The notes under the pieces: generated by a model
The model's input: the letters and a program-made list of their open reading frames with translations, nothing else
Database searches by the model: none
Told to the model about the DNA's origin: nothing
Translations under genes and position numbers: made by a program
Part shown: in pieces, positions 1-30,631 of the stretch
Numbering within the stretch: the stretch's first letter is position 1
Layout: the number at the start of each line of letters is the position of its first letter
From: a virus
Length of the DNA stretch: 30,631 nucleotides
IMG/VR virus record: IMGVR_UViG_3300045988_175865
Location: 118,001-148,631 of that record
Reading direction: 5' to 3' (one strand)

Positions 1-785
1 ATAAGTAAAAACAACGGAGAATTGTGAACTGAAGATCCTAAGGGGAGTAGTAGACTTATAAGTTTATTTACTTCACAAGATAATAAGTATGGTCTACAAT
101 TAATAGATACAGAAGATGTTAGCACAACCACTCAATATAGACTTACTATAAATAATAGTGACAGGTATTGTACTATTGATTGAATATATATATATATGTC
201 TACTAACGGCTCTGGTTATAATTGCTTTATAGAAGCATATAATCCTAGTTCTGAATCTTGAGATATAATATCTCAGGATGCTGTTTTACAGGGGTGATCG
301 GGACCTAATTTTAGAGCTTTGACATCTTCTATATATTATAACAATTCCCCAAGTACAGCTTCTCAATATTCGAAACTAAGGTTTACATTTTCAACTAGAA
401 GTGTTAGTGAGAACTATAGTGGACAATTGACAGTCTATAGAATTTCTGGATATGGTACTTATGGCTGGAGAATGCCTAACAATATGTCTAAAGTAGGTCA
501 AATATATTCTTGGGATAATGCTCAAAATGTTTCTTTTCCAGGAAGTGTATCGGCTTGAAAATTTATCAGTAATGGGGGTACTAGTACTAATGTAACAATG
601 GGAGATGGATCTCTAAAAGATCTTAAAACTAAACAACTAGTTGTAAACGGTACTATAAATAATTTTTATTCATCAGATAGTGTTGAGGTTAGACTTTACG
701 CTCCTACTTCAGGTGGTACTAGTGGGCAGATTCTTGTATCTAATGGTAATAATGCTCCTAACTGAGCATCCTTAGATAGTTTAGG
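1..785. repeat. Terminal assembly overlap identical to 29847-30631 (circular or circularly permuted genome, unique length 29,846 bp)
   Basis: Direct comparison of the first and last lines gives a constant offset of 29846. ORF 319-558 reappears as 30165-30404. No mismatch seen by eye. Confidence 0.95.
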
Positions 786-924
786 TATTCAGCCTGCTGG
801 AAACTATATTGAAGCTGGAACTGGAACCCAACCTCAAATAAATACGATTACTGTTCTAACTCAATCAGAATATGATGGTTTATCAACAAAAGATTCTAAT
901 ACTCAATATTTAATAGTTGAATAA
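1..924 (+). CDS. Tail fibre protein, C-terminal 307 codons (continuation of 26889-30631 after circularisation)
   Basis: Frame 1 is open from base 1 to TAA 922-924 if TGA at 25, 181, 259, 295, 556 and 763 is read as Trp. It is the same frame as 29400-29873 across the junction. Contains the fibre-type motif GGTSGQILVSNGNNAPNW. Confidence 0.85.
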
Positions 925-925
925 T

Positions 926-1039
926 ATGAATGTAAAGACCGATTTAAAGGGATTTTATGTAGGTGACAGAAAGGGTATTGCCATTTATGTTGGCAGTACC
1001 CAAATCTGGCCTGCAACGACTACAACTTCTAATAAATAG
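926..1039 (+). CDS. Small hypothetical protein (37 aa) downstream of the tail fibre
   Basis: ATG 926 lies 2 nt after the fibre stop; TAG at 1037-1039. Sequence MNVKTDLKGFYVGDRKGIAIYVGSTQIWP. Tight packing with neighbours. Confidence 0.4.
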   Translation: MNVKTDLKGFYVGDRKGIAIYVGSTQIWPATTTTSNK

Positions 1040-1047
1040 TCCTAATT

Positions 1048-1275
1048 ATGATATTACTAAAGAATTCTAAAAATACGCAAACTTTCTATATTGCCAAAAA
1101 GACTGGAATAGAAAAAGGTCAATTACCTATTGGTAGTTATTCAAAAGCAGAGGTAGATGCTTTATTTCAACCAAAAGGAGACTATATAACTGCTAATGAG
1201 TATAATAACAAGATCAACGAGCTAGAAGCAACAATACAAGAGTTACAAAGTAAGTTAGCAGATTCTAATAAATAA
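1048..1275 (+). CDS. Hypothetical fibre-associated protein with C-terminal coiled coil (75 aa)
   Basis: ORF track entry. PKGDYITANEY plus NELEATIQELQSKL resembles the KGDY/coiled-coil segments of the adjacent fibre. Ends in TAA. Confidence 0.5.
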   Translation: MILLKNSKNTQTFYIAKKTGIEKGQLPIGSYSKAEVDALFQPKGDYITANEYNNKINELEATIQELQSKLADSNK

Positions 1276-1307: not shown

Positions 1308-1326
1308 GTGAGTAAAAAACTTGACA
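1308..1326 (+). promoter_or_regulatory. Conserved 19-nt motif GTGAGTAAAAAACTTGACA, copy 1 of 4
   Basis: Exact 19-mer shared with 23233-23251; close variants at 14275-14293 and 23137-23154. All copies lie just after the stop of a late gene block. Confidence 0.6.
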
Positions 1327-1426: not shown

Positions 1427-1819
1427 ATGTATTACACTCTATTAATTCAGAATACTGTGAGTAAAGAAGTATATACATATAATTTGGAGAATTTAAATTA
1501 TGACGAAAATATTTATTATAAGTTCAATATTGTGCTGGATGATAATACACCTGACGGAGAATACCAATATCTGTTATTTGAGAATCCAAATCAAATTGAA
1601 GTTGTAGTAAACTATAATAACGTCTATGATAGCAAGTTATATGGAGATACTAAAATATTAGTAACGTTTACTAATACACTTACTAATGGAACTCAGATAT
1701 TAATTGCTGGTAAGCCTATTATGTGACTATCTAGTGGATTAATAAGAATAGGAGACTATAAATCTAACAATTATCAATATAATAAACAAAACAAATACCA
1801 AGTATATGACAGAAAATAA
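1427..1819 (+). CDS. Hypothetical protein (130 aa)
   Basis: First in-frame ATG of track ORF 1340-1726. Continues through TGA 1724-1726 to TAA 1817-1819. Overlaps the portal start by 14 nt. Confidence 0.5.
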
Positions 1820-2870
1820 GAAAAGTTTGAAGTTCTCGGCACTAGATCCATACATTGTAAGTAACATAGTAGAGCCTACAGAAAGTAAGAAAAGAGGATC
1901 AGATATGATAATGTGAGGCGATAATAATCGCTATCCTATTTACTTATGGGATCTATATTTAAACTGTGCAACATTACAGTCAATTATCAATGGAACTGCC
2001 GATTTTATCGTTGGAGACGATGTTATTTGTAATAAAGAGGGATTTAACGTAGTTGTTAATAAGAAAGGTGAAACGATAGTAGACATCTTTAGAAAGATAG
2101 CAATAGATAAGATGATTTTTGGAGGATATGCTGTTCAAGTAATTAGAAATATGGTTGGAGAAGTCAGTGAGATTTATCACTTAGATTTTATGAAGATCCG
2201 TTCTAATGAAAAGAATACTGTTCTTTATTATGCAGATGATTGGGAGGCTTGGTCAGTTAAGGCTTTAACTTATCCTAAATATGAGATAAATGATAGTGCT
2301 CCTGCTTCTGTAGTTTATAATAAAGGCTATGTAACAAGAAGCGTATATCCAATTCCAGTTTATGGAGCTGCTCTATTAAGTTGCGAAACTGAGAAGTGCA
2401 TTAATCAATTCCATTTAAATAACCTTAATAATGGATTTATGAGTAATGTTATTATTAACTTTAATAATGGAACTCCTACAGATGAAGCACAAGAAGAGAT
2501 TGAACGTAATATTAACGAGAAGTTCTCTGGATACCAAAATACTGGACGTATTCTTATTTCTTATAATGATTCAGATGTAAATAAGACTACTGTTGAAAGA
2601 CTTGATTCTGATGATTTCGATGAACGATATGAATCATTAGCAACTAGAACAAGAGAGCAAATATTCTGCGCTTTCAGAGCTAATCCTGTGTTGTTCGGTA
2701 TTAATTATGCTTCTGGATTCTCAAAACAAGAGTATCAGCAAGCATTTGATTTATACAATCGAACTATGGTGCAGCCAATACAAAAAGATATTTGTAAAAG
2801 TTTCGATACTATCTTTGGAATGAAAAATTCCGTTACAGTGGTACCTTTTAGTATGAATTGAAATGAATAA
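1806..2870 (+). CDS. Portal protein (354 aa)
   Basis: ATG 1806 to TAA 2868-2870, with in-frame TGA at 1914 and 2859. The N-terminal WGDNNRYPIYLWDLYLNCATLQSIINGTADFIVG and later FRANPVLFG segments look like Phage_portal-type proteins. Recognised by eye. Confidence 0.75.
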
Positions 2871-3456
2871 TTATACTGTTTATTGCCATATTAATAAATA
2901 TAATAATAAAATTTATATAGGTATTACTGGACAAGATCCTAAAAAACGTTGAGGAAATGGGAAAGGTTATAAGAATTCCTTTTTCTTTAATGCAATACAA
3001 AAATATGGCTGAGATAATTTCGAGCATAAAATCCTGTATACTAATTTATCTAAATTAGATGCAGAGCTTATAGAAATAGATTTAATACATTATTATAAAT
3101 CTATTAATAAAAGCTATAATATTGCTAATGGAGGTAATGTTACTACAGGATTAAAGATGTCAGAACAAGCGAGAAAAAACATATCACAAGGGCATATAGG
3201 ACTTAAAAGAAGTGATTCATTTAAAGAGAAGATAAGAGTTGCCAATAAAAATCGTTCTGACGAAATAAAAAGAAAACTGATAGATAGCAATAAACGTCCT
3301 ATAATTCAGCTATCATTAGATGGAGTCTTTATAAACGAATATGAGAGTATTAAAGATGCAGAGTTACAATTAGGGATATGACATCAAAATATATCTAAAT
3401 GTTGTAAAAACATCTATAAAACTGCTGGAGGATATAAATGACAGTATAAACAGTAA
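2863..3456 (+). CDS. GIY-YIG homing endonuclease (197 aa), free-standing between the portal and connector genes
   Basis: YTVYCHINKYNNKIYIGIT (GIY-YIG), KKR-W-GNGKGY (TGA 2950), KYG-W-DNFEH (TGA 3010), NUMOD3-like SEQARKNISQGH, C-terminal KTAGGYK-W-QYKQ. Four in-frame TGA; ends in TAA at 3454-3456. Confidence 0.9.
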
Positions 3457-4122: not shown

Positions 4123-4545
4123 ATGACATATTATGAAATAATCAATGGGCTAAAAGAATCTGCTCTTATGGAGCCTAATATTAATTTCGCTGGCAGTAAA
4201 GATATCTATGAGTTAAATAGCCTTCCTAATATAGATTATAATGTATTCTATATAACTCCAAATACATTTAATCTTGATGAAGATACTATTACATACTCAT
4301 TGAATCTTTACTATGTTGCCAGATGAGATGAAACAGACGAGAATCAACTTGAAGAACAGTCTGCTGGAATTTTAGCTCTTACAAATATAATTAACCGATT
4401 TAATAACACCTATCCTGATGTTCAATTATCTTACCCTTTAATATTTACTCCATTTTATCAAAAGTTCAAAGATATATGTACTGGAATATTTGTAAGAGTA
4501 GATATAATGGTAGATAATGTATTAGGAGTATGCGAAAATATATAG
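4123..4545 (+). CDS. Hypothetical virion-module protein (140 aa)
   Basis: ATG 4123 lies 1 nt after the previous stop. TGA at 4324; TAG at 4543-4545. No family recognised. Confidence 0.5.
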
Positions 4546-5108
4546 TATATATACATATATTTCCAAATGGAAAAAGGTATGTAGGGTTAACAACTCAAGA
4601 TGTTGATTCTAGATGAAGAAATGGGGAGGGATACAAACATCAGTTTGTTTATAAACCAATTAAAAAATACGGATGAAATAATATTAAACATATTATATAT
4701 TACGTAAACAATGAAACAGAAATGAAATATCTTGAAAAATACTTATTTGGTTACTATAATACTACTGATTTAAGATATGGGTATAATCGAACTGATGCTA
4801 ATAATCATCCGATATTTTCTGAAAAAACTAAAAATATTATGTCTGAACTTGCTAAAACTCGAATTGGAAATAAGAATCCATTTTATGGCAAGCATCATTC
4901 ATATGAAACTAAAAATAAAATAAGTATTAAAAATCAAAATATTAAAAATAAGCCAATTGCCCAGTATGATTTAGATGGCAATTTTATCAAATCCTATAAA
5001 AGCATACGATCCGCTTCTAGAGAACTGAGTATTGGCAGTGGTTTAATATGAGCAGTTTTGGCAGGAAGACAGTATCAAACTCATAAATTTATTTTTAAAT
5101 ATTTGTAA
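4530..5108 (+). CDS. GIY-YIG homing endonuclease (192 aa)
   Basis: KYIVYIHIFPNGKRYVGLT, DSR-W-RNGEGY, KKYG-W-NNIKH, NUMOD3-like repeats (TRIGNKNPFYGKHHS), C-terminal PIAQYDLDGNFIKSYKSI module. Three in-frame TGA; TAA at 5106-5108. Confidence 0.9.
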
Positions 5109-5764
5109 TGGAAAACAAATTAAAATGATTCGGACAGGTACTTGATTGAGTTAATAAATACGGGTTATGACAGATTATAAAAGGCGGATTTGCATTTATA
5201 TTTGTATCTTATGTCTTTATAATCTCTCTAAATCCAGGCATTATATATGATAAGGTTGCTACTTACATAGAAAATGTCCATAACGTTAAGCAAGTAATCA
5301 GACAAGATGCAGACATCAAAATACGTTACATCTTGAAAGATTTAAGAGTATCTACAAATGCAGATAGAGCTTGAGTTATTGAGTACCATAACGGTACATC
5401 TGGATTAGGAGGACTTCCATTTACATACGGAATTATGAACAATGAAGAATTAGAAGAAGGAGTATGTTCAGTATCTAGACATTATAGAGACTTCTTGTTA
5501 TCTGAGTATTTGTTTATTTTGGAGACTTCTAAACAAGGTGGATGAATAGGTAGTGTTGAGGATATAAAACAGTATGATACAAAAATGTATTATTCATTTA
5601 AATCTAATGGTGTTAATAAATTAGCTTTATTTTATTTAAAATCGGAATACAGAGATATTGGAGTAGTCGGCCTTTCATATTGTGATAATGAGATGCCAGA
5701 AGATACTTGAGTTAAATTAAGAGATGCAGGAATAAAGATAAGCATAATTTTAAATAAAAAGTAA
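5108..5764 (+). CDS. Membrane-anchored protein of unknown function (218 aa), first gene of the lysis cassette
   Basis: ATG overlaps the preceding stop (TAATG). Codon-by-codon reading is open to TAA 5762-5764, with six TGA (5126, 5147, 5168, 5372, 5543, 5708) and no TGG. N-terminal hydrophobic stretch GGFAFIFVSYVFIISL. The standard-code ORF track shows no ORF here at all. Confidence 0.7.
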
Positions 5765-5765
5765 T

Positions 5766-5927
5766 ATGAAGTATTGGGTAAAGTATTTAATCGCAGTTGT
5801 GATGATTATTGCAGTTTTGGTATTAGTAAAAGTAATTCCTTTCTGGATTACTATGGTATTACTTGCTTTAGCAGTAGGTAGCCATTTATTTTACAGATAT
5901 CTAACACTTAAAGACATTATAAAATAA
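5766..5927 (+). CDS. Holin-like small membrane protein (53 aa, two predicted TM helices)
   Basis: MKYWVKYLIAVVMIIAVLVLVKVIPFWITMVLLALAVGSHLFYRYLTLKDIIK: two hydrophobic helices and a charged C-terminus. Its stop overlaps the endolysin ATG (TAATG). Confidence 0.5.
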   Translation: MKYWVKYLIAVVMIIAVLVLVKVIPFWITMVLLALAVGSHLFYRYLTLKDIIK

Positions 5928-6376
5928 TGAAGTATTTTACAGTAGAGGAGTTAACTGAATCATCTACAGCAATTAAGGAAAATATAGACAACACTCCAAG
6001 TAAGGAGATCACTGAACACCTGATTGAGTTAATAGAGGAACTCTTAGATCCTATTAGAGAAAAATGGGCAGAGTATTGTAATATTAATAAACTTGGAAAT
6101 CCAGCAATAAGTGTAAGTTCAGGTTATAGATGCAAAGAGCTTAATAAAGCTGTAAATGGTTCAGTTACATCTGCACATATGACGGGTTATGCTGCAGACC
6201 TTCAAAATGTCTCTGGAAGTAGAGAAGAGTTTTATCAATTCCTATTAAACTTTTTGAAGGATAGAAATTTCGATGAATGTTTTATTGAATATAATAAGTA
6301 CACTAAGTGAATACACATAGCATTATATAATAGTAAAAAATTACAAAGAAAAAAAGTAGGTAAATTATATGTATAG
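5927..6376 (+). CDS. Endolysin, peptidase M15 family (D-Ala-D-Ala/L-Ala-D-Glu type zinc peptidase), 149 aa
   Basis: SGYRCKELNKAVNGSVTSAHMTGYAADL matches the M15 SxHxxGxAxD zinc-site motif. After TGA 6308-6310 the frame continues W-I-H-I, matching the conserved C-terminal W-x-H zinc ligand. Ends in TAG at 6374-6376. Confidence 0.85.
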
Positions 6377-6585
6377 TATCTATGTTCATATAAATAAATT
6401 AAATCATAAAATGTATTTTGGGATCACCAAACAAAATCCAAAAAGACGTTTTAGAGACGGAGAAGGTTATAAAAGTTGTACAAAATTCTACAAAGCAATA
6501 CAGAAATATGGCTGATAGAAGTGGAATTTATCGTACAGTTGGAACTTCTAAAAAAGCCTATGGTTATAGGTGAGAATATATTTAA
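6369..6585 (+). pseudogene. Degenerate GIY-YIG homing endonuclease remnant
   Basis: The first frame, 6369-6518, encodes MYSIYVHINKLNHKMYFGIT...GEGYKSCTKFYKAIQKYG-W and then stops at TAG. A +1 frame, 6514-6585, encodes ...KKAYGYR-W-EYI stop, the typical C-terminal end of the intact endonucleases. The middle of the gene is missing. Confidence 0.7.
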
Positions 6586-6600
6586 GATAAAATAAAGTAA

Positions 6601-6630
6601 GGGAGCCTTTTGAGCTCCCTTTTCTTTTTA
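6601..6630. terminator. Bidirectional rho-independent terminator between the convergent lysis and leftward operons
   Basis: GGGAGC (6601-6606), 7-nt loop, GCTCCC (6614-6619), followed by TTTTCTTTTT. Located where + and - strand genes converge. Confidence 0.7.
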
Positions 6631-7084: not shown

Positions 7085-7116
7085 CAAATATAATAATTAT
7101 ATTTTAATTTTCCAAA
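7085..7116 (-). promoter_or_regulatory. Bacteroidota-type promoter (TTTGGAAA, 20 nt, TATATTTG) directly upstream of gene 6914-7081
   Basis: The reverse complement of 7085-7116 is TTTG-gaaaattaaaatataattat-TATATTTG. This is the same -33/-7 architecture and 20-nt spacer as the three promoters at 8990-9191. Confidence 0.55.
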
Positions 7117-8831: not shown

Positions 8832-8989
8832 AATAGTAATTTTTAATAAGTTAATAAATTTTATATGTAACTTTTTTTATTTATCTTACTACAAAATATT
8901 AGTAAAAAAGTTACAGTAAAGATTAAAATTAAACTGGGAATTAATCCCAGCTCAATTTTCAATATGGAAGTAGTTTTAGTTTGATAGTA

Positions 8990-9021
8990 CAAAGATAATA
9001 CATAAAATTTCAATTTCCAAA
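8990..9021 (-). promoter_or_regulatory. Leftward promoter P-L1 (TTTGGAAA, 20 nt, TATCTTTG)
   Basis: The reverse complement reads TTTG-gaaattgaaattttatgtat-TATCTTTG, matching the Bacteroidota -33 TTTG / -7 TAnnTTTG consensus. About 150 nt upstream of the helicase ATG. Confidence 0.6.
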
Positions 9022-9078
9022 TAATTTTGCAATTATTTTTAATAAATTTTTTATTTATTATCTCTTACTTTCATAGTA

Positions 9079-9110
9079 CAAATATACAACATTATTTTTA
9101 AATCTCCAAA
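9079..9110 (-). promoter_or_regulatory. Leftward promoter P-L2 (TTTGGAGA, 20 nt, TATATTTG)
   Basis: The reverse complement reads TTTG-gagatttaaaaataatgttg-TATATTTG. It is a tandem copy of the P-L1 module, 89 bp further upstream. Confidence 0.55.
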
Positions 9111-9159
9111 TATTTTTATGAAAATAATTTAAATTTTTTTGAAAAAAGTTGTTAAAAAA

Positions 9160-9191
9160 TTTGGAGATTGGATAAAAATGTATTATCTTTG
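9160..9191 (+). promoter_or_regulatory. Rightward early promoter P-R (TTTGGAGA, 20 nt, TATCTTTG)
   Basis: TTTG-gagattggataaaaatgtat-TATCTTTG lies about 45 nt upstream of ATG 9237. It shares the 16-mer ATGTATTATCTTTGTA with P-L1 in inverted orientation. Confidence 0.6.
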
Positions 9192-9236
9192 TATTACAAT
9201 AAAAGACATAATATTAACAATTAAACTTTATAAATT

Positions 9237-9416
9237 ATGAAAACTAAACAAATTGAAGCACTTGAATATTTTCTTAATATATTAGATGGTAAGATTACTG
9301 AAGATGGTTCTATTGAGAAAGCTCAAGAATTATGTAATGAGGCATTAAAGGAGATTGAAACCAATGAAAAGGTAAAGAAATCCTCTTGGTTTTTTGGTTT
9401 AGGTATTTCTTTCTAA
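9237..9416 (+). CDS. Early hypothetical protein (59 aa)
   Basis: ATG 9237 to TAA 9414-9416. First ORF downstream of P-R. No family recognised. Confidence 0.5.
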   Translation: MKTKQIEALEYFLNILDGKITEDGSIEKAQELCNEALKEIETNEKVKKSSWFFGLGISF

Positions 9417-9427
9417 TATATTTAATT

Positions 9428-9667
9428 ATGAAAAAGATAAATAAAATATTAGCTGGATTATTAGTACTTAGCTTTATTATAGCTGGTATTAGAGTATATA
9501 ATGCTTATGGAGACTACCAAACTAAAACATTTGAGCTTAGATTAGAACAGGCAGAACTTCAGCATAAATTAGACTCTGTAATGTGGTATAATCCTGGAAG
9601 TTCAGAAGTATCTGAATTATATGAACAGTATTGTGATGTAACCTTAAAAATTCATAATGTAAGATAA
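9428..9667 (+). CDS. Early membrane-anchored protein (79 aa)
   Basis: ATG 9428 (internal Met of track ORF 9386-9667). The N-terminal segment KKINKILAGLLVLSFIIAGI looks like a signal anchor. Confidence 0.55.
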   Translation: MKKINKILAGLLVLSFIIAGIRVYNAYGDYQTKTFELRLEQAELQHKLDSVMWYNPGSSEVSELYEQYCDVTLKIHNVR

Positions 9668-10104
9668 TGAAAACAGATATAAGAAGTTTAGTCTTTATAA
9701 AGAATCTATTTAAAGATAAATATAATATAGAAATAGAATGATGTAAAGACGATTATTCCAGATATGATGGAACATTTACTTGGAATAATATAGACTATAT
9801 AATTGAAGTTAAAAGGAGAAGATTTAAATCAGATAAATATCCAACTACAATTATAAACAGGGATAAATTTGATATGCTATCAAGAAATAATTCTATATTA
9901 GTAATAATATTTGATGATGGAGTATATATATTTAAAGATATAAAACAAGCCTTTATAAAGGATTCTATGAAATATGGTTGTTCTACAACAGATTTTGGAG
10001 GAACTTATGGCTATTCATTAAAAACAGAGTTGTCTTTAAAGAAAGCCATTAAGATAGATGTAAATACAGAATTTAGTAATTATATAGCAAATGATAGCCT
10101 ATAA
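9667..10104 (+). CDS. Hypothetical protein, possible PD-(D/E)XK nuclease fold (145 aa)
   Basis: ATG 9667 overlaps the previous stop. TGA at 9739 is read as Trp. YDGTFTWNNIDYIIEVKRRRF fits a D...(D/E)xK pattern. Weak by-eye call. Confidence 0.35.
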
Positions 10105-10886: not shown

Positions 10887-11115
10887 TATTGACGATTTAC
10901 TTACTGAGTATGAAATAGACTATAGTATGTTTACAAATATGGATGATAGACTATTAAGTATATATCCAAAATGACTTGAGCTTAATAAGGCAGATAAGAC
11001 AGTAATCATATTATATGCTAAATATCACAGTTATAGAGAAGTGGGAAAAATATTGGGAATTAGTCATACTACAATTCAAAGATTTATTAAACAAATAAGA
11101 GAGAGATTATGTTAG
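10870..11115 (+). CDS. Sigma-70 region-4-like helix-turn-helix protein (81 aa)
   Basis: LNKADKTVIILYAKYHSYREVGKILGISHTTIQRFIKQIRERL resembles sigma region 4.2 / LuxR-type HTH. It is a separate frame, with TAA immediately before its ATG. TGA at 10972 is in frame. Confidence 0.45.
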
Positions 11116-20454: not shown

Positions 20455-23135
20455 TGGCACAAACAGAAATTAAAAAGGTTATTAGTATTGATACTAAGTC
20501 AAGTAATAAGTCAATAAACTCTTTAAAGAAAGATATTGATGCATTAACTAATTCGCTGAATGATTTAGAGATTGGTACTAAGGAATATAATGAAACTCTT
20601 TCATTACTTGGTAAGAGACAATCAGAATTCAATAAAATTAATGAGCAGATAGCAAGATCTTCAAGAACTACTGCTCAAAGGTTTGAAAGTGTAGCTAAAA
20701 TATCCACTGGTTTGGCCAGTGGATATGGAGCTGCAACAGCTGCCATTACTTTATTTGGGAAAGAATCTGAGGATTTAAATAAAGTAATGGTTAAGTTACA
20801 ATCTACTATTACTTTAGTTCAAGGTGTGGGAGGTATAAAAGATTTATTAGAAGAATTGCCTACTTTAGGTAATTGGTTTAAGAAATTAACTGATTTTATC
20901 TCTCCATTTAATACAGGGTTGAATAATGCTGCCAAAAATCTTAATCAGATTGATGCATCTAAGCTTAATGGCATTGGCACATCTGTTGGTAATGTTGGAA
21001 CTGAATTAGGTAATATCTCTAAAGTAGTCAAGGATTTAGAAGGCACCAATATTAATTTTAAAGGAGGTATGATTCAAGGAGTAATGGGCACTCCTGCTGA
21101 AATATCTGCTACTAATAAGAGTGTATCTAAGACGATTCCGATTATAGGTAAATTAAATGATAGTACTAAAAAAGCTCGTAATAGTATAGCTGTAATCAAT
21201 GAACAATTAGAAAGACTAAAAAGAAATTCTCCTGGGATAGCTGCAGTTCTTAATAAACAAGCTGAAGCATCTAATGCAGCTGCTAAAGGTGCTGCAGAAT
21301 TAGCTTCTGGAGTAGGTAAGGTTAAAACTGCACTTAAAACTATTGGTAATGTAACTGTATGAATTGCATTAGCTACAGCTATTGGATTAGCTATTAATAA
21401 GATAATAGAGTATATATCCTCAATAAAATCAGCTGAAAAGGAGGCTGCTGAATTTAGAAAGTCTATTACAGATACTACTAATCAGATTGCTTCTAAATCT
21501 ATAGCTATCTTTAGAGAGTTACAAATAGCTTACGAAAGGGTTGGAGATTCTGCAGATGCTAAGCGTAAGTTTATAGAGCAATATTCAGATAAGATTAAAG
21601 AGACTGGCTTAAATATCACTGATGTAAAGACTGCAGAAGATGCGTTTGTAAATAATACTGGTAATTATGTAGAAGCATTAACTGCAAGAGCAAAAGCTCA
21701 GGCTATTGAACAGGCTGCAATTAAGCTTTATGAGGAGTATTTAAACAAACGTACTGAACTGGAGAATCAAATTTCTGATACAAGCTTTGGAGAGGCATCT
21801 GCTTGGCAGGCTTTTAAAGCTACAGCAATGTTCTGAAAAGATTATTCTAATACTATTTATGAGTACACTAAGAAAAATAAAGAGAATACTTATAAACAGT
21901 TGGATGATTTAAATAAAGACATTGAGAAAAGGCTTAAAAAGCTATTTGAGGATGTAGCAGATACTAATAAAAAGTATGGTGAATTCTTTAATATTCCAAC
22001 TATTACAAAGAACACTACTGAAGCTAAGAAGGTAATTAATGAATTTGATGAATGGCTTCAAAAGAGATTAGAGGATAAAGATCCAGTAGATGAACTTGAA
22101 GATGAATATATTAGACTATTAGCATTAGCTATTAAGTATAATAGGGGAATTGAAGAGGTAGAAGCTTGGCATCAGGAAGAACTTAAAAAGATTAGAGATA
22201 AAGCTAGAGCTGATGAAGAAGCTAAGCGTAAAGCAGATGCAGATAAAGCTTGGAATGATCTACAGTCTGAATTAAAAAGGATTAGAGATTTATCTTCTAC
22301 AAGTAATTTGAGAGAGCCAAGAGAGCAGACCTTTCAGACTACTTATACTCAAGGTATATCGAAAGCATTTGGATTGGCTGGAGATTATGAAGGGACTGGT
22401 TATAAATTTACATATCAGAGTAGAGAGGACTTAGAGAATCAATACAATGCTCAAATTGAATACAATAACAACTTACTCTCATTAACTCAAGGTAGAATAG
22501 AGCAAGAGAATGCCTTATTAAGTCAGCAATTAATGAATGAACAATTAACTGCTGAACAAAAAGAGGAAATTCAAAGAACTCTTACTGAGAATAATATGGC
22601 CTTATCAGATGCTCAATTAGCTAATGAACAGGCAAATACTCAGGCTTATCAAAATCTTCAAAAAGCAAGGCAGCAAGCTTTACAGGGAACTTTATCTGTA
22701 GCTTCAAGCATTGCAGGAAGTATGGCAAGTATTTGGGGAGAGGAAAGTAAAGTAGGTAAAGGATTTGCTACTGCTCAAGCATTAATTGACACTTATTCAG
22801 CAGCAAATAGCGCATACTCTGCTATGGCAGGAATTCCTATTGTAGGTCCTGCTTTAGGTATTGCTGCAGCTGCAGCCGCAGTAGTTGCAGGTATTGCAAA
22901 TGTTAAAAAGATTTGAGAAGTAGATGAATCAGGTGCAAGTGGAGTGAGTGGAGCATCTGCAGCAGTGGCAGCACCAGCTGCTTTAAATACAGCTCCTGTA
23001 GAATATACTCGGAACTTACTTGGAGATAAAGAAACAGACCAACTTAACAATCCAATTAAATGTTATGTTGTTGAATCTGACATTACAAATGCACAGACTA
23101 AAGTGGCAGTTACTGAGTCTAATGCAAGTTTCTAA
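20454..23135 (+). CDS. Tape measure protein (893 aa)
   Basis: Track ORFs 20454, 21900 and 22944 are in the same frame, joined through TGA 21360, 21834 and 22914. Long coiled-coil regions, Gly/Ala-rich hydrophobic segments (GIPIVGPALGIAAAAAAVVAGI). Its ATG overlaps the preceding stop (TAATG). Confidence 0.8.
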
Positions 23136-23136
23136 A

Positions 23137-23332: not shown

Positions 23333-23926
23333 ATGGAAAATATGTATAACGAACTGCCACTATATCAAGCAGTAATAACTGACGATTTTGATGGCATAGA
23401 ATATGTAGCTTTAACATCAAAGCCAGCTACTCAAGTAAACTGGGTTGCATTTAATAACTCTTTGAAATTCTCTATGGATGAAGATCAACATCTTGTGACT
23501 TCTTGTTTAATGGTATGTGATATGCCAATTTTTAGACGAGATGACAATTTGGGAGAATATTATATCCAATATGATAAAGAGACTTTAAGAGCAATGGCTG
23601 AGAAGATGATGAGGGATAAGAGAACTGATGCTGTTAATATAGAGCATTTAGAAGATTCTTCGATTCCTGGAATTGTACTACAAGAACTTTACATTAAAGA
23701 TGAGAAAAGAGGAATTTCTCCAATAGAATTCAAAGATGTGCCTGACGGTTCTTTATTTGTAACTTACAAAATAAATAATCCTATTATTTGGGATGCTATT
23801 AAAGCTGGAAAGTTCAAAGGCTTCTCTATTGAAGGCTTATTTACTTTAGAACGTAAGAGTGATGAATATACAGAACTTAAAGAGATACAAAGAATGTTGA
23901 AGAAGATAAAACGAATTAAAAAGTAA
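23333..23926 (+). CDS. Putative prohead protease, XkdF-like (197 aa)
   Basis: Sits directly before the scaffold and capsid genes. NIEHLEDSSIPGIVLQELYIKD ... IIWDAIKAGKFKGFSIEG resembles XkdF/S78_2-type phage proteases by eye. No TGA. Confidence 0.55.
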   Translation: MENMYNELPLYQAVITDDFDGIEYVALTSKPATQVNWVAFNNSLKFSMDEDQHLVTSCLMVCDMPIFRRDDNLGEYYIQYDKETLRAMAEKMMRDKRTDAVNIEHLEDSSIPGIVLQELYIKDEKRGISPIEFKDVPDGSLFVTYKINNPIIWDAIKAGKFKGFSIEGLFTLERKSDEYTELKEIQRMLKKIKRIKK

Positions 23927-23929
23927 ACT

Positions 23930-24541
23930 ATGAGCAAATTCACTAAAATCAAATTAGAGCTTGCCAGAATGTTGGCAAAATTCAGTGATCTGAAAACTTC
24001 AAATGGGGTCTTAACTTGGGATTCTGACGAAGATCTTAAAGCTGGAATGGATGTTTATGTAATGGATGAGAATGGCGAATACGCTCCTGCTGCTGATGGT
24101 GATTATGTTACCGAAGATGGTAAAACTATCGTAGTTAAGGAAGGTCGCGTTGAATCAATTACTGATCCTAAAGCTGAAGTAGATCCAGAGGAAGGAATGA
24201 AAACTGTTGAGGTAGCTGCTGCTTGCGGAACTAAGAAAGTAAACGCTGCTGAGGAAGAAGTTGCAGATCCTATGGTTCAAACCGATGGTGTTAAAGAAAG
24301 TGAAACTGATGCCATTGATGCAATTCATAGAGAGATTAATGAGCTTTATGACATTGTAGACAAACTTACAAAGAAGGTTGCCGAGCTTGAAGCAAAAGGA
24401 ACTGAAACAAAAGAGACTGTTGAGAAAATGAGCAAAATGAGTGCTGCTTTCTCTGCAGAAGAAGAGATTGAAACAAAGCGTACTACTCCTACAAGTGGCA
24501 ATGCAGAAATAGATAGAAAGCTTAAAAACTTTATTGGTTAA
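23930..24541 (+). CDS. Putative scaffolding protein (203 aa)
   Basis: Acidic, with a coiled-coil segment (REINELYDIVDKLTKKVAELEAKG). Lies between the protease and the major capsid gene. No TGA. Confidence 0.5.
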   Translation: MSKFTKIKLELARMLAKFSDLKTSNGVLTWDSDEDLKAGMDVYVMDENGEYAPAADGDYVTEDGKTIVVKEGRVESITDPKAEVDPEEGMKTVEVAAACGTKKVNAAEEEVADPMVQTDGVKESETDAIDAIHREINELYDIVDKLTKKVAELEAKGTETKETVEKMSKMSAAFSAEEEIETKRTTPTSGNAEIDRKLKNFIG

Positions 24542-24562
24542 TAATTTAAAAATTAATAATTT

Positions 24563-25462
24563 ATGAATCCTGTAATGACTTCTTTGACTGCTTATGTTGA
24601 GCAGCGTAGATTACCTCTTATTAAAGAGGCTGTATTAAAAGCTAAGAGTGCTAGTTTATTTAACTTACAGACTGATATTAAAACTTCAGCTGCTCTTAAC
24701 TTACTTTCAACTGATGTTGAATTTGGAGATGGTCTGACTTGTGGATGGGATGAGGCTGGAACGCAGACTCTTTCACAACGAGTTCTTACGACTGGAAATA
24801 TAAAGATTAATATGGCTTATTGCGACAAAGCTATGCTTAAATATTGGACTCAGTATCAGGTTCGCGTTGCTGCTGGTCAGAAAACGCTTCCTTTCGAAGA
24901 GGACTTTATTAGTGGTGTAGTTGAGAATGTTAAAGCCGCTATTGAAACCGCTATCTGGCAAGGTGATACTAGTTCTGGTACGAACAACCTTAAATATTTC
25001 GATGGTCTGTTAAAGATCTTAAAAGATGCTGCTGGTACTGTTGATGTAACGATTACTGGTACTTCTGCTTACGATGACATTATGGCTGTTTATAACGCTA
25101 TTCCTGAGAAAGTACTTGATGGTGCTTCTATCTTAGTAGGTGCTGATACCTTCCGTAAATTCGTCCAGGAGTTAGTTGCTAAGAACTACTTCCATTATAG
25201 TGGTGAGAATCTTAATGGTGAGATTATGCTTCCTGGTTCGCAGGTTAAAGTAATCGCTGTTAATGGTCTTAACGGAACTGACAAGATCGTTGCTGGTCAG
25301 CTTGATAAGAACTTCTTCTATGGCTGCGATATGATGAACGACGAAGAGAAATTCGAAATGTGGTATTCGCAGGATTTCAGAGAATTTAGATTAGCTATTG
25401 AATTTAACGCTGGTGTACAGGTTGCATTCCCAGATGAGATCGTACTTGGTGTAAAAGCTTAA
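24563..25462 (+). CDS. Major capsid protein, HK97 fold (299 aa)
   Basis: Size, position, and motifs typical of Phage_capsid proteins (AIWQGD, YFDGLL, ...FRLAIEFNAGVQV). Codon usage is visibly shifted to GCT/GGT/CGT/CAG. Four Trp, all TGG. Confidence 0.85.
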   Translation: MNPVMTSLTAYVEQRRLPLIKEAVLKAKSASLFNLQTDIKTSAALNLLSTDVEFGDGLTCGWDEAGTQTLSQRVLTTGNIKINMAYCDKAMLKYWTQYQVRVAAGQKTLPFEEDFISGVVENVKAAIETAIWQGDTSSGTNNLKYFDGLLKILKDAAGTVDVTITGTSAYDDIMAVYNAIPEKVLDGASILVGADTFRKFVQELVAKNYFHYSGENLNGEIMLPGSQVKVIAVNGLNGTDKIVAGQLDKNFFYGCDMMNDEEKFEMWYSQDFREFRLAIEFNAGVQVAFPDEIVLGVKA

Positions 25463-25505: not shown

Positions 25506-26273
25506 ATGAACCGAATTGGGAACGTTTATATAATTACAAATACTATAAATAACAAAGTTTACATAGGTCAAACTATAAGAAATATAAGACAAAGATTTAG
25601 TGAGCATATGTCTCTTCATCAGAGAGGCAATGCTCATCTAAAATCTGCAGTATTAAAATACGGTAAAGAATCTTTTAATATAGAGGTATTAAAGACTTTA
25701 GAGACTAATAATGAAGATGAACTCTTTAAGTTTCTAGATAAATGGGAAAAGTACTATATAAAGAAGTATAAGTCTTATGATTCTGAGTTTGGCTATAATA
25801 TTGATTTTGGAGGTCAATTAAATAGAGTGGTATCTGATGAATCTAGAAAAAAGATAAGTGAATCACATAAAGGTGTTAAGTTATCTCTTGAGAGAATAGA
25901 AAAGCAGAGAGAATATATGAAGAATCATCCAGAAAGATGGATTGATCCTATACATAATATAGGTAAACAACTTTCTGAGGGACATAAACGCAAAATATCT
26001 GAAGCTCAAAAAGGAGAGAAGAAAAATATGTGAGGGAAACATCATAGTGATGCTACCAAAGAAAAACTTAGTAAAAGTGTCAGTGCTGCTATGATTAATA
26101 AGTATGGTAAACCAGTATTGCAGTATTCATTAGATGGAGAATTTATTAAAGAATGGAATTGTATAATGAATGCAGCTAAATCATTTAATAGTAAGCGTTC
26201 TCATATTCCAGATGTATGTAATGGTAAAAGATCTTCTTGTTTTGGTTATAAATGAAAGTGGAAATACGAATAA
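25506..26273 (+). CDS. GIY-YIG homing endonuclease (255 aa) inserted between the capsid and tail-tube genes
   Basis: GNVYIITNTINNKVYIGQT (GIY-YIG), LKYGKESFNIEVL, repeated NUMOD3-like SESHKG / SEGHKRKISEAQKG, C-terminal KPVLQYSLDGEFIKEW...FGYK-W-KWKYE. TGA at 26031 and 26253; TAA at 26271-26273. Confidence 0.9.
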
Positions 26274-26294: not shown

Positions 26295-26813
26295 ATGGCT
26301 TGCTTAATAACGCTTAATGGAATTACACTTGATTGCCAGCCTTCGTTAGGTGGTATCAAACGAGTTTGGATTACTCAATATTCAGATGTAAAATCTGTAG
26401 TTGTAGGTGATGACAATATGATTGAAAGTATCACTTTAGAGGGTGAAGCTCAATGGTATGAGTATCAGTTCCGTAAGGCTACTGGTTCTTTAACTTCAAC
26501 TCTGAATGTTGACGAATCCGCAGGAGTTAACTATGTAAGTAATGAGTTAGCTCTTGTATTTACAAAGATGGAAACTGCTAAGAGAATTGAAATTGCAGCT
26601 TTATCGATCGGTCAGCTTGCAGTTGTTGTTGAGGATAGTAATGGTCATTACTGGTTCCTTGGTAAAGATGATTATGTAAGCGCTTCCGCTGGTACGGGTG
26701 TTACTGGTACTGCAAAAGGTGATCAGAATGCTTATACTCTGACTCTCTCTACTGATTCGGATTCTTATCCTTATGAGTTGTCAGCAGAAGCTATTGCTGC
26801 AATAGTTGGATAA
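26295..26813 (+). CDS. Major tail (tube) protein (172 aa)
   Basis: Size, position, and a pattern typical of siphovirus tube proteins (GGIKRVWITQYSDV ... AVVVEDSNGHYWFLGKDD ... DQNAYTLTLS). No TGA. Followed by a strong terminator. Confidence 0.65.
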   Translation: MACLITLNGITLDCQPSLGGIKRVWITQYSDVKSVVVGDDNMIESITLEGEAQWYEYQFRKATGSLTSTLNVDESAGVNYVSNELALVFTKMETAKRIEIAALSIGQLAVVVEDSNGHYWFLGKDDYVSASAGTGVTGTAKGDQNAYTLTLSTDSDSYPYELSAEAIAAIVG

Positions 26814-26820
26814 TCAGATT

Positions 26821-26859
26821 AAGAGCGGGTAATTAATTTTACTCGCTCTTATTTTGTTT
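26821..26859 (+). terminator. Rho-independent terminator after the tail-tube gene
   Basis: AAGAGCGGGTAA / TTACTCGCTCTT forms a 12-bp stem with one G-U pair and loop TTAATT, followed by ATTTTGTTT. Confidence 0.75.
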
Positions 26860-26888
26860 ATAGACATTAATAATAAAAATTATATAAT

Positions 26889-29800
26889 ATGGAAAATCTA
26901 TTACCCTATTTAAATGTACTTGAGGCAGACACTATTACAAGGGATAATGTAAACAAAGCCTTAGTAATAGATAAAGATGATAATATAGCTCTTTTAAATG
27001 GAGAAGATTTAGGAACTAATAATTATCAAGATCTGCAAAATAAGCCAGAAATAAACGGAGTATCTTTAAATGGAAATCTTACTGCAAGTGAGTTAGGATT
27101 AGCATCTACTAGCAATATACCTACTAAAACTAGTCAATTGACTAATGATAGTGGGTATATTACTAGCTTAGATGGATATGCTACAGAGGAATGAGTAAAT
27201 AGTCAAGGATTTGCTACTAATGAATCTGTTACTGAAGGTTTAGCTGAAAAACAAGATAAATTAGTTAAAGGTAATGGAATCAATATATCTGGAAATACTA
27301 TATCTGCTGATTATAGTTCAATAGATAATAAGCCATCTTTAAATGGTAAGACTTTAGAAGTCTCAACGAACATAGTTCCAGCAATACAGGTTCAAGCAAT
27401 ACCTACTAAATTGACTATTACTCCATCTTTAGGTAATCAAACTGGACAAGCAGTTGAACTTCCTGGATATGATACAAATACTAATGCTTCTGGTATTTTA
27501 ACATCTCAAGTATTTGGTATTCTTAATGATAAGTATACTAAAGAAGAAATAGACAATATTAACAGTGCGATTAATACAGCTATTTCTAAAAAACAAGATA
27601 AATTAACAGCAGGAGCTAATATACGAATTGTAGATAACGTTATATCTGCATTTAATAATCATTTATTCTTACATTTAGATGAAAATGATACAGAACATCA
27701 GGCTTATGTATATTCTTTTATTAAGTCTAATTTAGAGTTCTATTTATTTGCTGAGATCACTTACGAAGGCAAAGTAGTAGTTCTTCCTTTAGTTGCTATT
27801 GAAAACAACGAATCGTTAGATTTAAAAGGAATGTATCTTAAAGATGATTCTACAATCGTTGAGGTATCTGCAGTTTTAGTAGCTAATGGTAATATGACTG
27901 TTAAAGTTACTGAGGTTGATCTTACTAATAAAGTATATACTAAAGAAGAAGTAGATGCCAAACTTGAGGAAAAACAAGGAGTATTTGCTCCACAAGCTCC
28001 ATTAGCTTTTAATGAAGATAAATCCCAATTATCTGTAGATTTATCTGGATACCAACCAGTTGGTGATTATGCTTTAAAGAGTGATATTCCAACTAAAGTT
28101 AGTGAGCTTACTAATGATTCTAACTTTGTAACTGAAACAGAGGTTTCTGGAGATTTAGCAGGTAAAGCAGATAAGACTTATGTTGATGAGCAGCTTGCTA
28201 CTAAACAGCCTGTAGGAGATTATGCAACAAAAACAGAACTTGCTGGTAAAGCTGATTCTTCTGTGGTAGAATCTTTATCTACTCAAGTAGCAACTAATAC
28301 TTCAGATATATCAATTATTAAAACAAAACAAGAAGAAGATGGAGATAAGATTGATTCTCTTGATAAAGAGATGGCTACCAAACAGGATACTCTTGTTAGT
28401 GGAGAATCAATTAGAACAATTAACAATCTTTCTTTATTAGGGGAAGGTAATATTAATGTAGGCGATGTTCCTTCTATTACAGTAGAAAATGAACAAATAC
28501 CAAATGAGACAGATTTTAATAGAGTTGCAGAAGCTGCGGCAAATAATAGAGCTGTTTTAATTAGAATTAAAACTACTGAAATGACGTTAACCTCTAATTA
28601 TTGACAGTATACCTCTTCAGAATCTCAGAGAGGCTTTGTTGCTTATGCAACATATTTATCAGAAACTAATAACATAACTCTGACGGCACATATTATAGAA
28701 AATCAACCAGTTATGGTAGAAACTTATGATAAAGAATTACAAGAAGAGTTAGTTTCTGGGACTAATATTAAAACTATTAATGGTACTGCTATACTAGGAT
28801 CAGGTAATATAGACACTCCAGATAGTAAGGTTACTAGTGCTGCTAATCACTATACTCCTGTTGGAGGAAGTGCTACATCTGGAACTATTATAAATTCTAT
28901 TACTAAGGATGAGAAAGGACATATTATAGATATAGGGGTTGCTAATGGTATAGATGCTGGTAAAATTACCTCGGGAGTTATTGATATTGAGAGATTGCCT
29001 AAGGGAGCACTGGAGCGTTTAGTAATAGTTGCAAATAAAGCAGCAAGACTAGCTTTAACCACTGAACAAGTACAAGAAGGCGATACTGTTAAAGAGAAAG
29101 ATACAGGTGTAATGTATTTTGTTATTGATTCTTCTAAATTAAATAGTGAAGATGGCTACTCTATTTATACAGCAGGAGCAGCATCTAGTGTGCCTTGGTC
29201 AGGAGTGACAGGTAAACCTGATTTAGTTAACTCGGTTAAGTTAGTACTGCCAAGTTCCATATTCATTAATTCTGAAAGTACACTTACAGGAAATGCAGAA
29301 TTAGGATCATCTTTAAGTACACAAAACGCTAATACAGTATGAGCAGCTCCAAGTGGCACATCTGGGGTACCAACATTTAGGAAATTAACTTTCCTAGATA
29401 TGAATACAGTAACGTCAGATAAATTTAACTATATACCCCAGACATTTAAAGGAGGAAGGCTAGTAATTAATTATAAAAACTCTGCTGGGGGTCAAAATAC
29501 TGACAACACTATAACAGAATACCAATTTGGAGATGGGGCCAGTAATCTTACATACATAACAGCAAAAGGTTTTAAAACTTCGGAAAATAATGGACACAGG
29601 GTACTATGTTCAAATGGATCTTCCAAATTATTGTATGGACCATCAACTCCTGGAACAGCAGGACAAGTATTAATTTCAAATGGGTCATCAACTCCTGAAT
29701 GGGGAAAAGTACCTATAACTAGTATAGGAGGACCTACTGTTGATACTGCGACTTCTAATACTGTACCATATGGAATTACTTCATATATTGGGGAGTACCG

Positions 29801-30631
29801 TTCTGATAAATTAGCGTTTATAAAGAGCACTGATTTATATGGAGAAATAAGTAAAAACAACGGAGAATTGTGAACTGAAGATCCTAAGGGGAGTAGTAGA
29901 CTTATAAGTTTATTTACTTCACAAGATAATAAGTATGGTCTACAATTAATAGATACAGAAGATGTTAGCACAACCACTCAATATAGACTTACTATAAATA
30001 ATAGTGACAGGTATTGTACTATTGATTGAATATATATATATATGTCTACTAACGGCTCTGGTTATAATTGCTTTATAGAAGCATATAATCCTAGTTCTGA
30101 ATCTTGAGATATAATATCTCAGGATGCTGTTTTACAGGGGTGATCGGGACCTAATTTTAGAGCTTTGACATCTTCTATATATTATAACAATTCCCCAAGT
30201 ACAGCTTCTCAATATTCGAAACTAAGGTTTACATTTTCAACTAGAAGTGTTAGTGAGAACTATAGTGGACAATTGACAGTCTATAGAATTTCTGGATATG
30301 GTACTTATGGCTGGAGAATGCCTAACAATATGTCTAAAGTAGGTCAAATATATTCTTGGGATAATGCTCAAAATGTTTCTTTTCCAGGAAGTGTATCGGC
30401 TTGAAAATTTATCAGTAATGGGGGTACTAGTACTAATGTAACAATGGGAGATGGATCTCTAAAAGATCTTAAAACTAAACAACTAGTTGTAAACGGTACT
30501 ATAAATAATTTTTATTCATCAGATAGTGTTGAGGTTAGACTTTACGCTCCTACTTCAGGTGGTACTAGTGGGCAGATTCTTGTATCTAATGGTAATAATG
30601 CTCCTAACTGAGCATCCTTAGATAGTTTAGG
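26889..30631 (+). CDS. Tail fibre protein (1293 aa in the circular genome; cut by the window end, true stop equals 922-924)
   Basis: Track ORFs 26889, 27411, 28713, 29400 and 30165 are all in one frame, separated only by TGA (27192, 28602, 29340, 29871 and five more). Repeated fibre modules: TKTSQLTNDSGYIT / TKVSELTNDSNFVT, QPVGDYA, LVSGTNIKTINGTAILGSGNI / LVSGESIRTINNLSLLGEGNI, GTAGQVLISNGSSTPEW. Confidence 0.85.
29847..30631. repeat. Second copy of the terminal assembly overlap (equals 1-785)
   Basis: See 1-785. Confidence 0.95.

Follow-up and report, generated by a model that had tools for sequence, protein, structure and literature searches.

Predicted reading of TGA as tryptophan in a compact human-gut phage family that lacks a detectable suppressor tRNA

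The 30,631-nt stretch studied here (positions 118,001 to 148,631 of IMG/VR record IMGVR_UViG_3300045988_175865; hereafter the window) is the complete genome of a human-gut phage in which TGA, as judged by comparison with its relatives, is a sense codon for tryptophan (Trp), and in which no tRNA gene was detected. The first-pass annotation, made from the letters of the window alone, had concluded that TGA must be decoded with help from outside the phage. Our results agree with this, because early and late genes alike contain TGA and no phage suppressor was found; decoding would thus be supplied in trans. We favor, with a probability of roughly 45%, the reading that tRNA-Trp(CCA) of a standard-code Bacteroidota host reads UGA by wobble, with loss of release factor 2 (RF2) during infection.

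Stop-free open reading frame (ORF) coverage rose from 74% under the bacterial code (table 11) to 92% when TGA was treated as sense, compared with 77% when TAG was treated as sense. Thirty-five genes could be placed under table 4, and 21 of these (60%) contained in-frame TGA; in total there were 56 TGA and 70 TGG codons, so that TGA accounted for 44% of the Trp codons of the genome. The genes terminated at TAA (30) or TAG (5) and never at TGA. The portal, terminase, and tail genes were full length solely under table 4, and annotating such contigs with table 11 breaks up 60% of the genes. When close relatives were aligned at the codon level, the TGA codons of the window corresponded to TGA in 223 cases and to TGG in 135; of the 158 changes observed at these codons, 135 were to TGG and none to GGN, and no GGA or GGT position of the window changed to TGA. 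Against distant relatives that use the standard code, TGA aligned with Tyr, Trp, Phe, Leu, and other hydrophobic residues and never with Gly, and its substitution spectrum was that of TGG. These comparisons indicate that TGA means Trp in this genome. Translation table 25 (TGA as Gly), which would have pointed to a Gracilibacteria or Absconditabacteria host, was ruled out by the lack of TGA-GGN exchange and of Gly alignment. Another possibility was that the genome is not recoded and the in-frame TGAs are real stops, to be explained by pseudogenes, by errors of assembly, or by read-through programmed at a few sites. This was refuted by ORF coverage, by codon exchange with relatives, and by alignment to the standard-code relatives, and it deserves practically no weight: the 56 codons are spread over 21 genes, including those for the portal, terminase, tail, and fibre, full-length homologues are restored under table 4 only, and conserved Trp positions switch between TGA and TGG in dozens of independent assemblies.

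No tRNA or transfer-messenger RNA (tmRNA) was found in the window by ARAGORN. An Rfam scan of the window returned nothing at gathering thresholds, and its permissive mode yielded six chance-level matches, none of them tRNA-like. A scan for hairpins of the UCA anticodon type (5-bp stem, loop N-U-UCA-R-N) gave two, both intragenic and without an acceptor or T arm. The earlier statement that non-coding DNA holds no tRNA therefore stands; the accompanying list of non-coding stretches matched the gene map apart from 14242-14332, which should read 14099-14332. Non-coding DNA totals only 1,269 nt, in gaps of 405, 234, 197, and 151 nt and smaller. Two gaps folded more stably than shuffled controls (1276-1426, z = -4.3; 23136-23332, z = -5.4), which might be taken to favor a highly divergent phage suppressor RNA missed by standard tools, as survey authors have proposed for other genomes (10.1101/2021.08.26.457843; PMC7886860). 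However, the strongly folding gaps proved to be single long, terminator-like hairpins followed by U-runs, or inverted repeats of divergent promoters, and not cloverleaves. Since the hairpin scan, the permissive Infernal search, and the relatives described below were equally devoid of a candidate, a hidden suppressor is very improbable.

Genes were assigned by Pfam and PHROGs profile searches of essentially all ORFs (Table 1). In these searches no ORF matched a release factor, an aminoacyl-tRNA synthetase, or a tRNA-modifying enzyme, upholding the earlier claim for the first two. Among ORFs of at least about 300 amino acids (aa), five had profile matches (portal, terminase, capsid, and two tail proteins); the other long ORFs were the tape-measure-like protein and the fibre, recognized by position and composition, and a helicase-like protein recognized by motifs seen by eye and a weak Helicase_C_2 match. 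Relatives were examined at 49 capsid-gene loci (33 close and 16 more distant) and 28 helicase-gene loci, which jointly cover both halves of about 30 genomes, and none contained a tRNA. The lack of tRNAs is thus a property of the family.

The window carries a 785-nt direct repeat at its ends, with positions 1..785 exactly identical to 29847-30631, and this repeat results from assembly overlap: the genome itself is 29,846 bp long (29% GC) and either circular or terminally redundant. The gene order across the junction (tube, 1293-aa fibre, 75-aa gene, portal) was matched in an independent human-gut contig (ERR414231, PRJEB5224; L129). The capsid protein of the window is encoded identically on a 193,455-bp human-gut scaffold in ENA (ERZ28596505, scaffold_39), and comparison with that scaffold, carried out on three stitched pieces, showed 100% identity over window positions 731-30631. 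At one flank of the scaffold, a 55-mer that equals window 28376-28430 runs into a 100-N gap, and the sequence resumes after the gap at window 731, 55 nt before the end of the repeat. At the other flank the fibre ORF continues into a different C-terminus. Both flanks are TGA-rich collagen-like fibre genes and belong to phages of about 167 kb, for which IMG/VR has independent contigs of 167,507 and 167,649 bp. These large phages are TGA-recoded, their ORF coverage climbing from 0.61-0.66 to 0.95; they have a GC content of 32% and no Shine-Dalgarno sequences, and their 772-aa terminase matches those of crAss-like phages of Bacteroides, Flavobacterium, Cellulophaga, and Azobacteroides. The sum of the two genomes minus the shared segment (167.6 + 29.8 kb) is about 193 kb. 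Taken together, the sizes, the gap with its 55-mers, and the phage flanks imply that the scaffold is an assembly merger of two phages via a 2.26-kb fibre module. We also considered that the scaffold was an integrated prophage in a host chromosome, which was ruled out because the flanks are crAss-like tail-fibre genes and the join is a 100-N gap bounded by 55-mers from the fibre segment common to both phages.

The fibre module (28376-30631) was effectively identical in the small and the large phage in that sample, as its copies were collapsed in the assembly. In independent contigs of the large phage, the segment showed 79-95.5% DNA identity (pieces L134 and L135, at 19557-20765), and in the comparison with the large phage it was 91% identical in protein over the 402 aa compared and 94% identical in DNA. 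From these identities we infer that the small phage and the crAss-like phage recently recombined and hence shared a host cell. The lysin of the crAss-like partner is 40% identical to the window endolysin, and a homologue of the 5108-5764 protein is also common to both phages.

This connection bears on the suggestion that the small phage depends on a helper or resident element, the source of UGA decoding being either a TGA-recoded crAss-like phage that co-infects the cell or a prophage or plasmid of the host. The scaffolding of the two genomes in one gut sample and the common lysin and 5108-5764 homologues supply a concrete candidate, which the earlier proposal had lacked; moreover, the large phage has a tRNA block and a tmRNA, and Zeta crAss-like phages are reported to have opal suppressors in some lineages (PMC12386605). 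On the other hand, relaxed ARAGORN found neither a UCA-anticodon tRNA nor a tRNA-Trp in the 58 kb of contig 163797 that were scanned (63.5-121.7 kb, tRNA block included; about 35% of the large genome). Furthermore, the small-phage family is very common and has a full structural and packaging set, so that obligate co-infection would be a heavy constraint. We therefore regard dependence on a helper as rather unlikely.

The tRNAs of the partner group comprised Leu(UAA), Leu(UAG), two to three Met, Gln, Thr, Ser(UGA), and Cys; some members also had Lys, Asn, His, or Phe. A tmRNA (L200, 7716-8121; also L195, L198, L201, and L205) matched RF00023 with 52.7 bits against a cut-off of 47, with an ARAGORN tag ending in AA, and it lies within a scattered group of 8-12 tRNAs, surrounded by early genes that lack TGA; for a crAss-like phage that recodes a stop codon, possession of a tmRNA is intriguing. 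In a more distant TGA-recoded crAss-like relative, contig IMGVR_UViG_3300045988_164120, we found a tRNA-Trp(CCA), which has a U11:A24 pair and whose anticodon stem has the normal 5 bp, and a CUA (amber) suppressor, but no UCA suppressor (L206, 12341-12413 and 13703-13783). Because UGA reading in E. coli is promoted by A24, the Hirsh-type state (PMC13092985), this tRNA-Trp(CCA) may decode UGA, and such phages may rely on a tRNA with the CCA anticodon. The early region of the same contig also contains a match to the Pistol ribozyme (L206, 663-733; RF02679) that scored 72.8 bits, the cut-off being 34.5. In the early region of the partner (L194, 19069-20608), an IspD-like cytidylyltransferase gene was noted by eye from the translations beside a LicD-like transferase gene, which, if correctly read, suggests modification of a host surface polymer.

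Several lines of evidence place the host in the Bacteroidota. The four sites of the TTTG-N20-TAnnTTTG type announced by the first-pass annotation were all recovered (Table 1). Their number is at chance (4 seen against 1.87 expected; at least 4 in 16 of 100 shuffles), but three of the four cluster in the 405-nt divergent early region and have a common extended consensus, and about 20 relatives carry two tandem promoter copies upstream of the helicase-like gene in which the TTTG and TAnnTTTG boxes are kept while the spacers vary. Conserved boxes of this kind with variable spacers are the signature of working sigma-A promoters of the Bacteroidota, as in Bacteroides and Flavobacterium. Promoters of the Bacteroidota type thus appear to drive the two divergent early operons. 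Shine-Dalgarno cores (GGAG, GAGG, AGGA, AAGG) were missing upstream of 28 of 32 gene starts, the leaders being A/T-rich, and the examples quoted earlier at 17014 and 24563 were correct. The nearest cultured portal relatives were Nonlabens phage P12024S/L and several Bacteroides siphoviruses, and distant capsid relatives were located on Chitinophagaceae and Bacteroidota contigs of metagenome-assembled genomes. The terminase had remote matches only, in Thermus and Halorubrum phages at about 25% identity, and these are uninformative on the host. BACON-like repeats had been claimed for two tail proteins; BACON or BACON_2 was indeed the top Pfam match for one segment in each, at 19-22 bits and thus below the 25-bit cut-off, and no repeats were seen, so that among the signals named by the first-pass annotation this is the weakest. 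The endolysin was confirmed as a peptidoglycan peptidase, and together with the holin-like gene it implies a walled host. To our knowledge, Crassvirales are known solely from Bacteroidota, so that the fibre module shared with a crAss-like phage provides independent evidence for the same host. The picture of a walled, Bacteroidota-like host therefore held up, and, as far as can be read from sequence, the host is almost certainly a walled member of this phylum that uses the standard code, most likely one of the Bacteroidales.

Whether the host itself might read UGA as Trp was assessed from TGA use across genes and relatives. TGA makes up about 30% of Trp codons across the family, compared with 65-96% for A-ending codons in other NNR pairs, whereas in P1 and MAV1, Mycoplasma phages of comparable GC content, TGA supplies 95% and 77% of the Trp codons and occurs in 9 of 11 and 14 of 15 genes, respectively. 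Avoidance of TGA concerned the genes expressed most strongly or earliest. In the relatives, none of the aligned Trp codons was TGA in the genes for the major capsid protein (0/127), scaffold (0/20), holin-like protein (0/56, 29 relatives), and helicase-like protein (0/123, 28 relatives), or in the 9237-9416 (0/7) and 9428-9667 (0/19) genes, and TGA was nearly absent from that for the tube-like protein (1/93; 1 TGA against 92 TGG). The XkdF-type protease gene, in contrast, does carry TGA in relatives (8/61). Six late genes of the window contained 14 TGG and no TGA codons (P ~3e-4 at the genome-wide rate). The helicase-like gene of the window has a private TGA at codon 513 (7293-7295), a conserved W513 position occupied by Trp or Phe; the codon is TGG in a 99%-identical relative (L107) and in other relatives, which points to a TGG codon that turned into TGA very recently, in an early gene that is elsewhere free of TGA. 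In a relative of 30 kb whose capsid protein is 67% identical and whose GC content is 28% (L030; IMGVR_UViG_3300029905_000019), TGA occurred neither in frame nor as a stop in the 22 ORFs counted over 20.7 kb, and the C-terminal TGA of the 2863-3456 endonuclease of the window aligned with Trp in this standard-code relative. More distant relatives use TGA as a stop. L030 looks like an "unassigned codon" intermediate en route to recoding, in agreement with the stop-loss-then-capture path proposed by Borges et al. (10.1101/2021.08.26.457843), and the reassignment itself appears to be recent in the phage lineage. The crAss-like partner likewise has early genes that are mostly TGA-free and late genes in which TGA makes up 67-72% of Trp codons, a contrast of the kind seen with a code switch.

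A native table-4 host would be an unrecognised walled lineage, of the Bacteroidota or another group, whose code the phage simply matches. It would account for TGA in early and late genes and for the recoding of 60% of the genes, and the two unrelated phages that have a fibre module in common are both TGA-recoded, with no opal suppressor found so far in either. However, the under-use of TGA, its avoidance in highly expressed and earliest genes, and the existence of a TGA-free sister lineage make such a host unlikely, as does the early/late contrast of the partner. In addition, all Crassvirales hosts known to us to date use the standard code. Table 4 has been described in Bacillota (Mycoplasmatales), in a few endosymbionts of the Pseudomonadota and Verrucomicrobiota, and in two Eggerthellaceae genera (PMC13462651; 10.64898/2026.05.24.727570); the last of these, a walled lineage, was recognised as using table 4 only in recent work (PMC13462651), which speaks for a native table-4 host. 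No table-4 Bacteroidota were reported by a translation-table classifier run on several hundred thousand genomes (10.64898/2026.05.24.727570) or by the Eggerthellaceae study (PMC13462651). Of the options listed by the first-pass annotation, this one is thus disfavored, and we consider it improbable.

That list was presented as exhaustive, and it did not cover a phage protein that neutralizes RF2 or alters host tRNA-Trp. According to the reading we favor, host tRNA-Trp(CCA) would read UGA by C:A wobble, and a small, TGA-free early phage product would neutralize or outcompete RF2 during infection, so that wobble reading becomes efficient; a host tRNA-Trp variant prone to read-through might assist. 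Phage genes end with TAA or TAG only and can be served by release factor 1 (RF1), which would make the loss of RF2 costless to the phage. Variants of tRNA-Trp(CCA) are able to read UGA in E. coli, and Zinderia has solely such a tRNA (PMC13092985). The RF2-antagonism step itself is pure inference. Several observations weigh against this explanation. No protein encoded in the window resembled a known RF2 inhibitor or a tRNA-modifying enzyme. Early genes carry TGA, at codon 25 of the 9667-10104 gene and at codon 513 of the helicase-like gene, so that decoding would have to operate very early, or read-through would have to be high before phage products accumulate. About ten TGA codons in the fibre require efficient decoding at each codon, the base following in-frame TGA showed only a weak, non-significant depletion of T, and the host was placed indirectly, from promoters, leaders, relatives, and the shared fibre module, with neither a CRISPR-spacer nor a prophage link found. 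In a more general form, it is conceivable, though doubtful, that a phage of about 35 genes without RNA genes switches a Bacteroidales host to UGA as Trp, or exploits such a switch, without any suppressor tRNA. It could do so by two routes, namely an early protein that disables RF2 or hitch-hiking on the decoding state of the TGA-recoded crAss-like phage with which it would exchange receptor-binding modules.

The features of the window are listed in Table 1. The structural and packaging set consists of the portal, large terminase, XkdF-type protease, scaffold, major capsid protein, tube-like protein, three large tail proteins, and the fibre; it is accompanied by a lysis pair (holin-like protein and Peptidase_M15_3 endolysin) and by an early set made up of the superfamily 2 (SF2) helicase-like protein and about 15 small proteins. 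A PDB sequence search with the helicase-like protein gave no match. The 30-kb genome holds four homing endonucleases (two recognisable GIY-YIG, one NUMOD-only, and one HNH) plus one decayed GIY-YIG remnant; all four intact endonucleases use TGA for Trp, and relatives vary in the copies present.

Table 1. Features of the window, with coordinates in nucleotides of the 30,631-nt stretch (TM, transmembrane segment; HTH, helix-turn-helix; UTR, untranslated region)
Feature	Position	Strand	Remarks
Portal protein	1806..2870	+	Phage_portal, E = 2e-13; 2 in-frame TGA
GIY-YIG/NUMOD homing endonuclease	2863..3456	+	Pfam; 5 TGA
NUMOD1/NUMOD3 homing endonuclease	4530..5108	+	Profile match; 3 TGA
Protein with phrog_30125 match, function not predicted	5108..5764	+	6 TGA, no TGG; homologue in crAss-like partner phage
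Small two-TM holin-like protein	5766..5927	+	Directly upstream of endolysin; TGA-free
Endolysin, Peptidase_M15_3	5927..6376	+	E = 5e-17; 1 TGA
Decayed GIY-YIG endonuclease remnant	6369..6585	+	Repeat family D3 and translation
Bidirectional intrinsic terminator	6599..6621	.	Between rightward lysis genes and leftward early operon
Bacteroidota-type promoter, TTTG-N20-TAnnTTTG	7085..7116	-	Ahead of three small leftward genes at 7081-6628
Early SF2 helicase-like protein, 575 aa	7104..8831	-	Weak Helicase_C_2 match; Walker A, DExH, and motif VI by eye
Divergent early control region, 405 nt	8832..9236	.	Promoters 8990-9021(-), 9079-9110(-), 9160-9191(+); 5'-UTR hairpin 8925-8959
Rightward early gene block	9237..12224	+	First two genes (9237-9416, 9428-9667) TGA-free family-wide; TGA in later ones
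HNH endonuclease	10091-10585	+	Within rightward early block
HTH/sigma-region-4-like protein	10870-11115	+	HTH_50 and Sigma70_r4_2 matches
Large terminase subunit	12172..13455	+	Terminase_6N and Terminase_6C; 2 TGA
Tail protein	14825..17011	+	One BACON-like segment, residues ~335-394, 20.6 bits; 4 TGA
Large tail protein	17014..20454	+	One BACON_2-like segment, residues ~986-1043, 21.7 bits; 6 TGA
Tape-measure-like protein	20454..23135	+	From composition and position; 3 TGA
Hairpin, 83 nt, near-perfect (probable strong terminator)	23137-23219	.	Directly 3' of tape-measure-like gene, then U-rich run
Head module: XkdF-type protease, scaffold, major capsid protein	23333..25462	+	TGA-free here
GIY-YIG/NUMOD3 homing endonuclease	25506..26273	+	Profile match; 2 TGA
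Tube-like protein (phrog_19091)	26295..26813	+	PHROGs match; TGA-free here
Tail fibre, 1293 aa	26889..30631, on to 924 of circle	+	9 in-frame TGA in window; tenth expected in wrap-around
Fibre module, 2.26 kb	28376..30631	+	Common to ~167-kb TGA-recoded crAss-like phage
Repeat GTAAAAAACTTGACA, 15-mer in ~45-nt repeat	1312..1326; 14279-14293 (two mismatches); 23237-23251	+	Upstream of three rightward operons

The third copy of the repeat GTAAAAAACTTGACA forms a perfect TTGACA-17-TATAAT (23246-23274), while scans of the genome for the sigma-70 consensus revealed no overall enrichment. The copies are candidate middle or late promoters or regulator sites, unlike the early promoters of the Bacteroidota type. 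An ORF at 10578-10886, which overlaps the 10870-11115 gene, resembles sigma-70 region 2 by eye, without a profile match; the two ORFs may represent a split or frameshifted phage sigma-like factor, which could read the repeat.

The phage belongs to a large uncultivated human-gut family: capsid-protein matches were obtained on about 600 IMG/VR contigs, mostly of 28-33 kb, and in more than 3,500 proteins, with records labelled human gut, and the largest contig among the 120 best capsid homologues was 33.6 kb. Searches of GenBank phage DNA and with the capsid protein gave no match. No integrase was identified in the genome, and no integrated copy of the phage or its relatives was found, the scan of genome collections for prophages having returned two short distant matches only, so that the phage is probably virulent. 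We take it to be siphovirus-like by analogy, because it has tape-measure-like and tube-like genes and its nearest cultured relatives have genomes of about 33-36 kb.

How TGA-recoded phages decode TGA without a suppressor tRNA has been an open question since 2014 and concerns most table-4 phages. The family described here offers a compact test case: there are about 35 genes and 1.3 kb of non-coding DNA, about 60 relatives showed no tRNA, and even early genes contain TGA. Candidates for the postulated product are narrowed to a handful of small TGA-free early proteins, among them those encoded at 9237-9416, 9428-9667, 6741-6911, and 6914-7081. The recombination link to a TGA-recoded crAss-like phage suggests a testable idea, namely that unrelated phages in one host share a decoding state. 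If true, a route through RF2 disabling or hitch-hiking would add, for viruses, a new mechanism by which the genetic code changes. The kind of system is already known; what is new is the recombinational tie to a crAss-like phage and the small search space for the mechanism.

Compared with the Mycoplasma phages P1 and MAV1, the window phage is alike in using TGA for Trp genome-wide, and in those phages no suppressor tRNA is needed or present either. They differ in that TGA makes up 77-95% of their Trp codons and occurs in 82-93% of their genes, and in having AGGA/GGAG Shine-Dalgarno-like leaders, whereas in the window phage TGA stands at 44% of Trp codons and in 60% of genes, Shine-Dalgarno sequences are absent, promoters are of the Bacteroidota type, and an M15 endolysin is encoded. 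We know of no peptidoglycan hydrolase in Mycoplasma phages, as expected for wall-less hosts.

Recoding without a suppressor has been described before and still lacks an explanation. Surveys detected opal suppressor tRNAs in just 35% (10.1101/2021.08.26.457843) and 15% (PMC11210395) of table-4 phage genomes, so the first-pass annotation overstated the case in calling each of its options unusual. Several opal-recoding Zeta crAss-like phages with 18-25 tRNAs have no opal suppressor (PMC12386605), and host-encoded suppressors, in addition to undetectably divergent ones, were proposed by Yutin et al. (PMC7886860). The table-4 gut phages of standard-code hosts described by Borges et al. (10.1101/2021.08.26.457843) resemble the window phage in their low GC content, in the depletion of TGA as a stop and its use as Trp, in having a close standard-code or TGA-free relative, and in their predicted Bacteroidota host, and 65% of those genomes lack a detectable suppressor tRNA, as here. 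In contrast to those phages, the lysis genes of the window are not enriched in the recoded codon, the holin-like gene being TGA-free. By its description, the Garnet clade (34 +/- 5 kb, linked to Prevotella) comes closest in size and host phylum, and its fraction of recoded genes (about 71%) is similar too; its described genomes are TAG-recoded prophages with integrases, whereas the window phage has no integrase and none of its relatives was found integrated.

The Zeta and Epsilon crAss-like phages with opal recoding (PMC7886860; PMC12386605) are similar in habitat, reassignment, gene starts without Shine-Dalgarno sequences, and the abundance of homing endonucleases, and some of their recoded members also have no detectable opal suppressor. 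One such phage has the fibre module and lysin-type genes in common with the window phage. The window phage, however, belongs to an unrelated virion type, and its genome is only a fifth as large; tRNAs are entirely absent from it, as are genes for a phage RNA polymerase or DNA polymerase, and its recoding reaches early genes. With respect to near-cognate tRNA-Trp(CCA) variants (4-bp anticodon stem, Hirsh A24; PMC13092985), the situation differs in that the window phage encodes no tRNA; it is alike in that these variants provide a suppressor-free route from UGA to Trp that works in bacteria.

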